From the NCBI RefSeq assembly GCF_056712565.1, contig NZ_JBWXXM010000002.1: 64,000 nucleotides of DNA. The stretch is one strand, 5' to 3'. This document shows positions 47,300-58,356 of the stretch, piece by piece. The notes under the pieces were generated by a model. The model searched no databases. It had not been told where the DNA came from and was given only the letters and a program-made list of their open reading frames with translations. The translations under genes were made by a program, and so were the position numbers. Source of the DNA: a plasmid. The stretch's first letter is position 1. Every line of letters starts with the position of its first letter.

Positions 47300-47337
47300 G
47301 GGGAGCCCGCAGAATTCGGAAAAAATCGTACGCTAAG
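47300..47337. repeat. Tn1721-type 38-bp terminal inverted repeat (outer end)
   Basis: GGGGAGCCCGCAGAATTCGGAAAAAATCGTACGCTAAG. Confidence 0.85.
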
Positions 47338-49153
47338 GTTTTCCGGGCATCCGTAAGGGCCGAAACTTCCCGTCTTCCAGTCTGCGGCTCTGCCGCCAGA
47401 CGTAATCGCCGGTTAGGTTGATGTGCTCCCAGCCCAGCGGCGACAGGAATTGCAGCAGCTCGCCGTCCACCGGCTTGCCGGCCTCGACCAACCCCTGGGT
47501 GGCGCGTTCCAGGTACACCGTGTTCCACAGCACGATAGCCGCCGTCACCAGGTTGAGGCCGCTGGCCCGGTAGCGCTGCTGCTCGAAGCTCCGATCCCTG
47601 ATTTCCCCAAGGCGGTTGAAGAACACCGCCCTGGCCAGCGAGTTGCGCGCCTCACCTTTGTTCAGGCCGGCATGCACGCGGCGGCGCAGTTCAACACTTT
47701 GCAGCCAGTCCAGGATGAACAGCGTGCGCTCGATCCGGCCCAGCTCGCGCAGGGCCACGGCCAGTCCGTTCTGGCGCGGGTAGCTGCCGAGCTTGCGCAG
47801 CATCAGCGAGGCGGTGACGGTGCCCTGCTTGATCGAGCTGGCCAGGCGCAGGATGTCGTCCCAGTGGGCACGCACGTGCTTGATGTTCAGGGTGCCGCCG
47901 ATCAGCGGGCGCAACGTCGGGTAGGCTTGCACGCCCTGCGGCACGTACAGCTTGGTTTCGCCGAGGTCGCGGATGCGCGGCGCGAAGCGGAAGCCTAGCA
48001 GGTGCATCAGGGCAAAGACGTGATCGGTGAAGCCGGCCGTGTCGGTGTAGTGCTCCTCGATCCGCAGGTCGGACTCGTGGTACAGCAGGCCGTCGAGCAC
48101 ATAGGTGGAATCGCGGACGCCGACATTCACCACGCGGGTGCTGAACGGCGCGTACTGGTCGGAGATATGGGTATAGAACAGCCGTCCCGGCTCGCTACCG
48201 TACTTCGGGTTGACGTGCCCGGTGCTCTCGCCCCGGCCACCCGCGCGGAAGCGCTGGCCATCGGAGGATGAGGTCGTGCCGTCGCCCCAGTGGGCGGCAA
48301 AGGCGTGGCGATACTGGTGGTTGACCAGCTCGGCCAAGGCCGCCGAATAGGTTTCGTCGCGGATGTGCCAGGCTTGCAGCCAGGACAGCTTGGCGTAGGT
48401 CAGGCCGGGGCTCGACTCGGCCATCTTGGTCAGCCCGAGGTTGATCGCATCACCGAGGATTGCGGACAGCAGCAACGTCCTGTCTTTGGCCTCGGCCCCG
48501 TCCTTCAAGTGGGTGAAGTGGCGGCTGAAGCCCGTCCAGTCGTCCACGTCCATCAGCAGTTCGGTGATCTTGATGCGCGGCAGTAACTGGCTGGTTTGGT
48601 CGATCAGCGCCTGCGCCCGATCCGGCACCGCCGCATCCAGCGGGGTGATTTTCAGCCCTGACTCGGTGAGGATGGCATCGGGCAGCTCGTTGTCCTTGGC
48701 CAGGCGGGTGACGGTGGCCAACTGCTCGTCCAGCAGCTGCAAACGCTCTTCCAGGTACTGGTCGCTGTTCGGGTTGATCGCCAGGGGCAGGGCCTGCTCG
48801 CGCTTGAGTGCGGCGAACTTCTCGGCCGGCAGCAGGTAGTCGTCGAAGTCGCGGAACTGCCGCGAGCCCTTGACCCAGATGTCGCCGGAGCGCAGGGCGT
48901 TCTTCAGCTCGGACAGGGCGCAGATTTCGTAGAATTTCCGGTCGAGGCCTTCCGGGGTGATCACCAGCGGCTTCCAGCGCGGCTTGATGAAGGCCGTGGG
49001 TGCATCGGCCGGCACCTTGCGCAGGTTGTCGGCGTTCATCTCACGCAGGGTCTGCACGGCTGCCAGCACGCCTTGCGCGGCCGGCCCGTGCTGTTCCCCA
49101 ACTTTTCGCTCGGCGAAGAGTATGAACATGCGCCGCCGGCGACGAATCGCCAA
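47333..49153 (-). pseudogene. tnpA: Truncated transposase copy tnpA' (3' two-thirds of a Tn21-subgroup tnpA)
   Basis: ORF 606 aa whose homology to Tn21-type TnpA begins about residue 25; stop lies within the IR. Confidence 0.75.
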
Positions 49154-49179
49154 ATCTCACCGTATCTCCCGAGCGGACG

Positions 49180-49480
49180 ATTTCGCACCGGTCTGCCCGT
49201 CGAAGGGCTTGCGATCGAACGGGGCGACCTTTTCTATGCATGTCCGCGAGCCAGCGTCTTTTATGGCACGGCGCTCGACGCCGACCTTCGGACGCGCGGC
49301 GTAAGCACGCTTGTCATGGCCGGGATAAGCACCACCGGCGTTGTTCTTTCAAGCGTCGCCTGGGCTAGTGATGCGGACTACGACGTGCGTTTGGTCCAGG
49401 ACTGCTGCTACGACCCGGATCGGGATGCCCACGAAGCTCTGTTGCGTTCCGGGTTCGGCGGACGTGTACAGGTCGTGTAA
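49180..49480 (+). pseudogene. Possible isochorismatase-family gene fragment
   Basis: C-terminal stretch ...TLVMAGISTTGVVLSSVAWASDADYDVRLVQDCCYDPD resembles the isochorismatase-like fold; fragmentary. Confidence 0.25.
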
Positions 49481-49617
49481 TTTTCGGGCCTCGCATGATC
49501 GCGGCCATAGCCGCAGGTGGATTGGTGCGAGGCAGGGCCAGTCCAAGTCAGGGTGCGGTCATCGCGGCGCCTGCAACTCTCAAAAACCCATCGCCGTAGC
49601 GGAGGTCTTGTAATCGC

Positions 49618-56351: not shown

Positions 56352-56391
56352 GCGAAAGGCCTGAGAGGAAACTGATGAATACACGATTATT

Positions 56392-57211
56392 GGCACTGTT
56401 GCAAAGTTAGCGATGAGGCAGCCTTTTGTCTTATTCAAAGGCCTTACATTTCAAAAACTCTGCTTACCAGGCGCATTTCGCCCAGGGGATCACCATAATA
56501 AAATGCTGAGGCCTGGCCTTTGCGTAGTGCACGCATCACCTCAATACCTTTGATGGTGGCGTAAGCCGTCTTCATGGATTTAAATCCCAGCGTGGCGCCG
56601 ATTATCCGTTTCAGTTTGCCATGATCGCATTCAATCACGTTGTTCCGGTACTTAATCTGTCGGTGTTCAACGTCAGACGGGCACCGGCCTTCGCGTTTGA
56701 GCAGAGCAAGCGCGCGACCATAGGCGGGCGCTTTATCCGTGTTGATGAATCGCGGGATCTGCCACTTCTTCACGTTGTTGAGGATTTTACCCAGAAACCG
56801 GTATGCAGCTTTGCTGTTACGACGGGAGGAGAGATAAAAATCGACAGTGCGGCCCCGGCTGTCGACGGCCCGGTACAGATACGCCCAGCGGCCATTGACC
56901 TTCACGTAGGTTTCATCCATGTGCCACGGGCAAAGATCGGAAGGGTTACGCCAGTACCAGCGCAGCCGTTTTTCCATTTCAGGCGCATAACGCTGAACCC
57001 AGCGGTAAATCGTGGAGTGATCGACATTCACTCCGCGTTCAGCCAGCATCTCCTGCAGCTCACGGTAACTGATGCCGTATTTGCAGTACCAGCGTACGGC
57101 CCACAGAATGATGTCACGCTGAAAATGCCGGCCTTTGAATGGGTTCATGTGCAGCTCCATCAGCAAAAGGGGATGATAAGTTTATCACCACCGACTATTT
57201 GCAACAGTGCC
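56392..57211 (-). mobile_element. IS26 copy 2 (820 bp), same orientation as copy 1
   Basis: 14-bp IRs at both ends; flanking 8-mers differ. Confidence 0.9.
56444..57148 (-). CDS. IS26 transposase
   Basis: Protein identical to copy 1. Confidence 0.9.
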
Positions 57212-58167
57212 ATATTTCCAATAACCCATTAAGTCAATCCCTCTACACTGGGCGCACCGATGAGTTTGGCCAAATAGAGTTTGCTTTACGAATGATGCAA
57301 GCTGAAACAGGCGCCATAGTAGGTCGCATAGGTGATGCATCAAATCGGCTTAGCGAACACACCCGAGGCCTACTAAAGGATATTGAGTCAAGCAATGTAC
57401 TTACAGTTGAGCAGCAGGCAGAGACAGATCAAATAGCAACGGCAGTAAACCAAATGGTGGCAAGCATTCAAGAGGTTGCGAGCAATGCACAGCATGCTGC
57501 AGATGCGGCCGGAAGAGCAGACACTGAGACGGCATCTGGCCAGCGTCTGGTAGCCCACACAAGCCAGTCAATCACTGCCCTTGAAGGTGAAATTAGGCAA
57601 GCCACTCAGGTTATTCATGAGCTTGAAGGTCAAAGTAACGAGATATCAAAAGTTCTTGACGTTATACGAGGGATCGCCGAGCAAACGAATTTGTTGGCAC
57701 TCAACGCAGCAATTGAGGCCGCGCGTGCTGGTGAGCAGGGGCGTGGTTTTGCTGTTGTCGCCGATGAGGTTCGCAGTCTTGCTGCTCGCACACAGCAATC
57801 GACAACGGATATTCAAAGCATGATCAGCGCTCTACAAGAGCGAGCGCAATCCGCTGTTACAGTCATGGAGCAAAGTAGTCGGCAAGCGCACACGAGTGTA
57901 GCTCACGCAGAGGAAGCAGCTACAGCTCTTGATGGAATTGGCCAACGCGTTAACGAAATTACCGACATGAACGCGCAAATAGCGACTGCGGTCGAGCAGC
58001 AGGGAGCAGTAAGTGAAGACATAAACCGCAGTATTATCAATATACGCGATGCTGCTGATACCAATGTACAGACCGGGCAGAATAATTTGCAAAGTGCGAA
58101 ATCTGTCGCTCAGTTAACTAGCGCTCTGAGCGAACTGGCAAAACAGTTTTGGGAAAAACGAGGATAA
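57212..58167 (+). pseudogene. 5'-truncated methyl-accepting chemotaxis protein-like gene (Tn1721 orfI/mcp), cut by IS26
   Basis: C-terminal MCP signalling-domain sequence (...[35 protein letters not shown]...); reading frame starts inside IS26. Confidence 0.7.
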
Positions 58168-58318
58168 CGCTTTTCAGTATCTCGACAGGGATAACTTACT
58201 TTACCATCGGTTATCCCTTTTAGCCGCACAAATTTTAGCCATGGCTTTTCAGGAAGTCAGGGCTATCAGAATGGCCTTAGAAAGCCTAGTCAAAGAGCTG
58301 TCACGAGAACACCGTTAG

Positions 58319-58356
58319 CTTAGCGTACGATTTTTTCCGAATTCTGCGGTTCCCCC
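58319..58356. repeat. Tn1721-type 38-bp terminal IR (other outer end, IRL variant)
   Basis: Reverse complement reads GGGGGAACCGCAGAATTCGGAAAAAATCGTACGCTAAG. Confidence 0.85.

Follow-up and report, generated by a model that had tools for sequence, protein, structure and literature searches.

The frame and ends of the element

Positions 47300-58356 of the window (the whole 64,000-nucleotide stretch of plasmid DNA that was analysed) hold a tetracycline resistance transposon with sound ends and a rebuilt interior, and the question is whether this mosaic transposed as it stands or was remodelled by IS26 after it had inserted. The observation was reproduced base for base, and the region is a Tn1721 derivative with tetracycline resistance on an IncHI2 plasmid. 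Tn1721 has been defined by two identical inverted repeats (IRs) in the same orientation, IRRI and IRRII, and by an inverted and slightly different IRL (PMC5736529). As listed below, three 38-bp IRs are found, none of which is expected by chance; IRRI and IRRII are identical and in the same orientation, while IRL is inverted and differs at 3 positions. In addition, the 5-bp target site duplication (TSD) TTAAA directly flanks the outer ends on both sides, so that the outer IRs and TSD of the preliminary description are both borne out. The ends and the tet region are as follows:

47295-47299, no strand: left copy of the TSD, TTAAA, which occurs once at the empty site of CP082622.1
47300-47337, plus strand: IRRII, outer 38-bp IR of the tet half, 0 mismatches to GGGGAGCCCGCAGAATTCGGAAAAAATCGTACGCTAAG
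47333-49153, minus strand: tnpA', truncated duplicate of the tnpA 3' end, 606-aa ORF
49073-49480, plus strand: fragment of an isochorismatase-family (cysteine hydrolase) gene belonging to the tet region
49618-50502, plus strand: pecM-like EamA/DMT transporter gene, intact, 294 aa
50534-51733, minus strand: tetA(A), coding for a tetracycline efflux protein of 399 aa (NF012193, score 892 bits, cut-off 840)
51839-52489, plus strand: tetR(A) repressor gene, 216 aa, carrying G182D
52788-52825, plus strand: IRRI, internal 38-bp IR, identical to IRRII
58319-58356, minus strand: IRL, outer 38-bp IR of the Tn1722 half, variant beginning GGGGGAACC
58357-58361, no strand: right copy of the TSD, TTAAA, matching 47295-47299

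The tet region from IRRII to IRRI (truncated tnpA', pecM, tetA(A) and tetR(A)) is present, and alignment of the tet half (47300-53140) to complete Tn1721 copies showed 1-2 differences in 5,841 bases, which agrees with its earlier description as intact. Positions 47299-49085 are 100% identical to the tnpA 3' end, and the tnpA' ORF keeps the DDE domain and lacks roughly the first 380 N-terminal residues. The tetA(A) gene is identical to the copy in CP057748.1, and TetR G182D (A at 52383) was absent from all four other copies compared. Alignment to complete Tn1721 copies gave >99.9% identity; judged by its sequence, the element is Tn1721 itself, which is more than the 'Tn1721-like' of the preliminary description. 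The functions predicted to persist are efflux inducible by tetracycline (tetA/tetR), pecM and the two IS26 copies, which look active.

IS26 and a conserved segment replace the transposition module

A complete Tn1722 (tnpA, tnpR, res and mcp) is missing between IRRI and IRL. The loss amounts to 4,142 bp of the Tn1722 module (883 of the 988 tnpA codons, all of tnpR, res and the 5' 40% of mcp), and a 4,071-bp IS26-S-IS26 structure stands instead:

52821-53140, minus strand: tnpA 3' remnant, last 105 codons and stop, cut by IS26a
53141-53960, minus strand: IS26a, 820 bp, tnp26 on the minus strand, flanks GCGCGCCT / ACAGAAAA, no 8-bp TSD
53961-56391, plus strand: segment S, conserved block of 2,431 bp
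53961-54155: 64-codon gene tail in S
54163-54347: six iterons in S
54771-55106, minus strand: SNase-like gene in S
55298-55912: IS66-family transposase fragment in S
55977-56351: cupin gene in S
56375-56391: first 17 bp of a chlorite-dismutase-family gene (cld) in S
56392-57211, minus strand: IS26b, same sequence and orientation as IS26a, flanks CGATTATT / ATATTTCC, no 8-bp TSD
57212-58167, plus strand: 3' remnant of mcp (orfI), 317 of 525 codons kept at the C-terminal end, HAMP and MCP-signal domains included

The tnpA and mcp remnants are thus as short as had been claimed. An ORF at 57139-58167 is a read-through that starts inside IS26b and runs through the mcp remnant. Since only 105 tnpA and 317 mcp codons are left, the element is labelled delta-Tn1721, a deletion derivative that is predicted to be no functional member of Tn1721. 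Because there is no transposase, resolvase or res site, autonomous movement would be lost despite the three kept IRs, and the Tn1721 frame is a presumptive fossil, immobile on its own, as the preliminary description had held. A Tn3-family remnant at 25.1 kb was considered as a helper and rejected, because just 234 aa of its C-terminal end are left and its DNA shows no similarity to Tn1721.

The two IS26 copies, the only ones in the 64-kb window, are 100% identical to the IS26 copies of pKPN5, and each has 14-bp terminal IRs (GGCACTGTTGCAAA) and an intact Tnp26 ORF for a single 234-aa protein; the protein was compared with a reference Tnp26 sequence. Comparison of the flanks showed no 8-bp duplication at IS26a, at IS26b or around the pair, in line with the two direct copies without TSD noted before. 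An 8-bp target duplication is the mark of simple replicative (copy-in) IS26 insertion, and none is expected after a conservative targeted IS26 reaction, an adjacent deletion or recombination. The absent duplication therefore bears on the history of the copies and not on their identity. Two direct IS26 copies around a passenger segment form a pseudo-compound structure.

Segment S is carried by ~445 plasmids, mostly from Klebsiella, and in pKPN5 (NC_009651.1) and OW849318.1 IS26a and S lie together without a gap at 99.97-100% identity and share the IS26|S junction seen here, which argues that S was pre-assembled. On the evidence of these alignments, S is a single ready-made block that arrived as a unit together with IS26, with no local assembly. 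The '2.4 kb of unrelated fragments' of the preliminary description therefore stands as to heterogeneous content and falls as to origin, since the fragments make up one conserved block.

IS26 remodelling probably follows a single insertion at TTAAA

The flanks align colinearly, at 99.9-100% identity, with IncHI2 plasmids whose records are typed as IncHI2A, and the left flank is found in ~650 plasmids at at least 99% identity, the match ending exactly at the insertion point among the matches listed. The reconstructed empty site equals CP082622.1 (100% over 1,000 bp, with a single TTAAA). In pEco_M21816_274 (E. coli, NZ_CP133924.1) an intact Tn1722 of 5,640 bp fills the TTAAA site and has the same TSD, pSE08-00436-1 has a full-length mcp beside the same IRL junction, and 43 plasmids have the IRL junction in common. 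The site was thus seen empty, with Tn1722, with the mosaic Tn1721 and with remnants only. The empty site and the intact Tn1722 with the same TSD indicate that IS26 remodelling is later than insertion. As an aside, the Tn1721/Tn21 hybrid in tnsA of IncHI2 ST4 plasmids (PMC7355605; pYLMB15a) was considered as the same element and rejected, since its insertion site is another.

Taken together, these results make it very likely that a single Tn1721/Tn1722 insertion at TTAAA was followed by IS26 remodelling of the transposition module. The incoming element, either an intact Tn1721 or a Tn1722 to which the tet region was added later, would have transposed once into the IncHI2 site with a 5-bp duplication; IS26 activity would then have removed the 4,142 bp and left the IS26-S-IS26 structure in the gap, S being a block whose left end already adjoins IS26 in resistance regions of the Klebsiella type. 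Two routes seem most likely. By one, IS26 would have entered Tn1721 and deleted adjacent DNA by intramolecular replicative transposition, after which an IS26-S translocatable unit would have been captured beside the resident IS26 in a conservative IS26-targeted reaction. By the other, an IS26-S-IS26 unit would have inserted first and the adjacent deletion would have come afterwards. No 8-bp duplications are seen because either route would erase them. Future change of the element would come via IS26 or homologous recombination.

Relatives of the mosaic

The closest overall relative is pF700-1 (NZ_OY757096.1, E. coli, IncHI1B, from a broiler in France). Its tet half differs by 1 base, its tnpA|IS26a and S|IS26b junctions are identical to those of the window and its parts run in the same order from IRRII to IRL, whereas the leftmost 350 bp of S have given way to a Tn2 fragment (delta-tnpR-blaTEM-1-IRR), the mcp remnant is longer by 85 bp, and the backbone and flanks differ, the mosaic lying between CAGTA and CAGTT (4/5 match). 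In Citrobacter freundii pRHB16-C09_3 (CP057748.1), a complete Tn1721 of 11,128 bp shares the canonical IR arrangement and a 5-bp TSD, its tet half differs by 2 bases and its mcp-IRL end is 100% identical, but it has not lost the 4,142 bp that IS26-S-IS26 replaces in the window. The S|IS26b junction is common to the window, CP057748.1 and pF700-1. Derivation of the window from the CP057748.1 arrangement, in which IRL adjoins S at 54271, by one IS26 inversion or deletion was rejected, because an inversion would leave the IS26 copies and S inverted, and here S runs without a break; for CP057748.1, an independent insertion of Tn1721 into S is the better reading.

No record in PLSDB or the E. coli complete genomes has the exact colinear 11-kb arrangement. 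Coverage of at least 80% in one joined place was found only in pF700-1-type plasmids (with the extra blaTEM segment) and in CP057748.1 and two Klebsiella plasmids, these last three having the same pieces in another order. Other Tn1721 copies also have IS26-bounded internal replacements, with different cargo. The IS26b|mcp junction had no independent occurrence in PLSDB, the E. coli RefSeq complete genomes, the GTDB representatives or the JGI metagenomes; its exact 39-mer had 0 matches in the GTDB representative genomes and JGI metagenomes, and an asymmetric query (22 bp of IS26 and 250 bp of mcp) found no more than near misses, with junctions at +3 and -7 bp. Symmetric 600-bp junction queries were discarded as uninformative, since pieces of IS26 and Tn1721 that lie apart were counted together as a single 'place'.

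Alternative histories

Since pF700-1 has a very similar interior although its backbone is unrelated, recombination may have brought in part of the interior seen here. It is possible, if rather doubtful, that the mosaic interior arose in a different plasmid and was brought by homologous recombination into a Tn1721 resident at TTAAA: long and identical recombining arms are available (the tet half with 5.8 kb, mcp-IRL with 1.1 kb), two IS26 junctions recur in pF700-1 on a different backbone, and S is mainly a block of Klebsiella plasmids and not of IncHI2. However, the IS26b|mcp junction lies 85 bp off in pF700-1, and S keeps its left part here but has a Tn2 fragment in its place there, so that neither plasmid can have given the interior directly to the other; a donor with the exact interior was not found in PLSDB or the E. 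coli complete genomes, and import would alter only the location of the IS26 steps, not their nature. An assembly error that mis-joined the IS26 copies, so that S does not truly lie between the Tn1721 stumps, is improbable. IS26, at 820 bp, exceeds short-read length, and neither the exact arrangement nor the IS26b|mcp junction was seen in other records of the collections searched, yet three of the four IS26 junctions recur in independent assemblies, the order tnpA stump-IS26-...S-IS26-mcp stump also occurs in pF700-1, just two IS26 copies are present in the window, and the outer IRs, the TSD and the backbone are colinear with relatives.

The preliminary description held that the unit transposed as one Tn1721-like element. 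The IRs and TSD uphold transposition as a unit, but it was an intact Tn1721 or Tn1722 that moved and not the mosaic, since in sister IncHI2 plasmids an intact Tn1722 or full-length mcp occupies this site, again with the TTAAA duplication; one ancestral insertion explains them all. That an already mosaic, transposase-less 11-kb unit entered TTAAA with a Tn1721/Tn1722 transposase in trans is accordingly extremely improbable, even though both outer IRs are intact, the TSD is perfect and a similar mosaic stands between 4/5-matching pentamers in pF700-1. Without res and tnpR, such an event would halt at the cointegrate, and the right flank of pF700-1, its translation read by eye, resembles an IS256-type transposase gene and does not seem to continue the gene on the left, so that these flanks are no clean insertion site. 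As to later movement, we consider it very unlikely that the transposase-less element can be moved in trans by a Tn1721/Tn1722 transposase, as the 11-kb unit or a 5.6-kb IRRI-IRL unit; if true, this could explain the near-identical mosaic between CAGTA and CAGTT in the IncHI1B plasmid pF700-1.

Significance and comparison with known systems

Overall, the element is an ordinary and well-understood part of its resistance plasmid, a routine resistance-region mosaic of known kind, with little significance beyond bookkeeping. It exemplifies a unit transposon fixed in a plasmid lineage after IS26 removes the transposition genes and leaves the tetracycline resistance genes untouched, and the series of states at the TTAAA site is a tidy teaching example of stepwise decay. 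The two active-looking IS26 copies are seeds for further rearrangement in an IncHI2 resistance region, and the IS26b|mcp junction and TetR G182D could mark this plasmid lineage epidemiologically.

In the features that it shares with the complete copy of CP057748.1, the element agrees with the published description of Tn1721 (PMC5736529). The Tn1722 of pEco_M21816_274 shares its backbone, TTAAA target and duplication and IRL end, but has intact tnpA, tnpR, res and a full mcp and neither a tet region nor IS26. The Klebsiella IS26-S-cld region (pKPN5, OW849318.1) has a complete chlorite-dismutase-family gene and ~1.9 kb before the next IS26, whereas IS26b here cuts the cld-type gene after 17 bp. 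IS26 translocatable units have been described (PMC4894685), as have IS26/delta-Tn1721 dynamics in IncHI2 plasmids (PMC9019673). Like IS26 pseudo-compound transposons and translocatable units, the structure here has a direct IS26 pair, a passenger and no 8-bp duplications; its passenger differs in carrying no resistance gene, and the translocatable unit, which would form a 3,251-bp IS26-S circle, is a candidate.

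The Tn1721 frame lacks its transposition module

ORF and repeat scans over 45-61 kb, plus pattern searches, were used to map the Tn1721 derivative at 47300-58356 of this IncHI2 plasmid; its three inverted repeats (IRs) were located by pattern search.

Features of the element
47295-47299 and 58357-58361, TTAAA, 5-bp flanks at the outer ends
47300-47337, plus strand, IRRII, 38-bp Tn1721 IR, identical to IRRI
52788-52825, plus strand, IRRI, 38-bp Tn1721 IR, identical to IRRII
53141-53960, IS26a, 820 bp, tnp26 on the minus strand, 8-bp flanks GCGCGCCT/ACAGAAAA
53961-56391, segment S, 2,431 bp: a gene tail (64 codons); six 16-bp iterons CCGTCTATTACCCACC, two inverted and four direct at 21-bp spacing (54163-54347); an SNase-like gene; an IS66-family transposase fragment; a cupin gene; the first 17 bp of a chlorite-dismutase-family (cld-family) gene
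56392-57211, IS26b, 820 bp, tnp26 on the minus strand, 8-bp flanks CGATTATT/ATATTTCC
58319-58356, minus strand, IRL, 38-bp Tn1721 IR, GGGGGAACC variant

The alignment to Tn1721 proposed in the preliminary description was run against the complete 11,128-bp copy of Citrobacter plasmid CP057748.1, and the Tn1721 parts were colinear. The stretch 47300-53140, which corresponds to IRRII-tnpA'-pecM-tetA-tetR-IRRI plus the adjoining first 320 nt of tnpA, shows 2 mismatches, and 57212-58356, from the mcp 3' end to IRL, shows none. The tet half is intact, as had been claimed: tetA/tetR and pecM are whole, TetA does not differ from the reference copy, and Tet(A) reached 892 bits in the family scan (cut-off 840). 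These scans also recovered TetR, EamA/PecM, Tn3-family DDE, and HAMP and MCP-signal domains, in agreement with the gene names. TetR(A) (51839-52489) carries a missense change, G182D (A at 52383), which is not in four other Tn1721 copies (CP057748.1, pF700-1, pVE-F10_1 and OW849318.1).

Compared with the complete Tn1721, 4,142 bp are absent, comprising 883 of the 988 tnpA codons, all of tnpR and the res region, and mcp up to codon 208, with IS26-S-IS26 in their place. The remnants are those described earlier, a tnpA stump of exactly 105 codons plus a stop codon, which lies inside IRRI, and a 5'-truncated mcp stump, which is 317 codons long. A 342-aa ORF (57139-58167) starts within IS26b and runs on into the mcp stump; other plasmids have comparable truncated genes, annotated as "HAMP domain-containing MCP". 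The product of tnpA', the truncated duplicate in the tet half, has 606 aa without the N-terminal third (profile positions 1-383 of 954). Since the frame is also without transposase, resolvase and res, the element is not autonomous, which bears out the view that it can no longer transpose by itself. No usable Tn3-family transposase was found elsewhere in the 64-kb window, where the only other Tn3-family remnant (25130-25834, minus strand) is a 234-aa transposase C-terminal fragment with no DNA similarity to Tn1721. This fragment sits in the backbone beside a resolvase gene (26288-26929, plus strand); AraC/DJ-1, MBL-fold and MFS genes come next.

Two IS26 copies enclose a conserved segment

IS26a and IS26b are identical and directly oriented, and a pattern search found only these 2 copies in the whole window. 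An 8-bp duplication was sought in their flanks and was absent for each copy and for the pair, as previously stated. The 2.4 kb between them had been called unrelated fragments; family scans agree that the contents are heterogeneous, but S is a single conserved block: at least 80% of it is present in 445 plasmids, mostly Klebsiella and mostly at 99% identity or more. In pKPN5 and OW849318.1, IS26 and the entire S form one uninterrupted stretch, joined exactly as IS26|S is in the window; there S extends into a complete cld-family gene, whereas in the window IS26b cuts that gene. The S|IS26b junction is also found in CP057748.1 and pF700-1. The Tn1721 IRL of CP057748.1 (L001 in our numbering, 14133) and the Tn2 IRR of pF700-1 (L002, 11250) each adjoin GTCTATTACCC. 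The two junctions lie in different iteron copies at an identical position, which may be a preferred Tn3-family target.

One insertion site in several states

Both flanks of the element are IncHI2 backbone, and many typed IncHI2 plasmids match them at 99.9-100% identity. A synthetic empty site, made of 500 bp of left flank including one TTAAA and 500 bp of right flank, matched Salmonella plasmid CP082622.1 (137928-138927) in one piece at 100%. Because the empty site is intact there, the element did insert at this point and its TTAAA duplication is real. In about 650 records the left flank is matched at 99% identity or more, and among the matches listed the match ends exactly at the insertion point. 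The mcp-IRL-TTAAA-backbone junction is kept in 43 records. In E. coli plasmid pEco_M21816_274 (NZ_CP133924.1; L013, 9994-15633) the same site is occupied by an intact Tn1722 of 5,640 bp, again with TTAAA on both sides, and in pSE08-00436-1 a full-length mcp adjoins the same IRL junction; in most other relatives, IS26 deletions reaching into the backbone have removed the IRL end (e.g. pVE-F10_1). Public plasmids thus show this site in at least four states: empty, with an intact Tn1722, with the mosaic Tn1721 of the window, and with left or right remnants only. There was hence one ancestral Tn1721/Tn1722 insertion, with repeated remodelling afterwards. The earlier proposal that the unit transposed as one therefore stands for the insertion and its TTAAA duplication, but the truncations are secondary.

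Elsewhere in the window, a 30-nt inverted-repeat pair (45005-45034 and 60621-60650) contains CTGT-N8-ACAG, a LexA-box-like motif, and the second copy lies directly upstream of a umuD-like gene (60669-61103, Peptidase_S24) of the IncHI2 umuDC operon. The window also carries a full-length IS66-family transposase gene (14912-16525) and a hipA-like toxin kinase gene (19505-20830).

Origin of the mosaic

These results show a Tn3-family insertion with a 5-bp duplication whose transposition module was then replaced by IS26-S-IS26, without IS26 duplications. The route is inferred from established IS26 behaviour. A single IS26 would have entered Tn1721, adjacent DNA would have been deleted through intramolecular replicative transposition, and the resident IS26 would then have captured an IS26-S translocatable unit beside itself. 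Alternatively, IS26-S-IS26 would have inserted first, with the adjacent deletion afterwards. Part of the IS26 behaviour behind both orders comes from PMC9019673. Compatible with either, the interior may have been imported by homologous recombination via the long Tn1721 arms.

The IS26b|mcp junction of the window had no match in PLSDB, E. coli RefSeq complete genomes, GTDB representative genomes or JGI metagenomes. An assembly artefact at the IS26 junctions is nevertheless unlikely, because three of the four, and the overall order of parts, are present in independent assemblies. Independent IS26|mcp junctions lie 3 bp upstream of the window's (+3 bp, NZ_CP067315.1), 7 bp downstream (-7 bp, NZ_CP032988.1 and others) and at +85 bp (pF700-1), and thus cluster within about 100 bp around 57212 in mcp; this could reflect a hot spot, or stepwise nibbling via IS26 adjacent deletions.

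Comparison with known elements

Tn1721 has been defined (PMC5736529) by its three 38-bp IRs and 5-bp direct repeats, by the minor transposon Tn1722 within it and by a tet region whose transposase is truncated; the element agrees with this definition. Its nearest relative is pF700-1 (IncHI1B, broiler E. coli), which has the tet half and the tnpA|IS26a junction in common with it and the parts in the same order, stump-IS26-...S-IS26-stump. In contrast to the window, pF700-1 has the left 350 bp of S replaced by a Tn2 fragment with blaTEM-1 and retains 85 bp more of mcp. Each plasmid is therefore in the ancestral state at one end and in a derived state at the other; this implies that they share a precursor and that neither descends directly from the other. 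Tn1721 copies with IS26-bounded cargo in place of the interior are common, with strAB-sul2-repC in pMCR8_095845 and mph(A) in pYLMB15a, and IS26/delta-Tn1721 dynamics in IncHI2 plasmids are already published (PMC9019673). Taken together, the preliminary observation is confirmed and its interpretation supported with the two refinements on S and on the truncations; the finding is an ordinary one: known parts, brought together by known mechanisms in an arrangement that is new and has no name.
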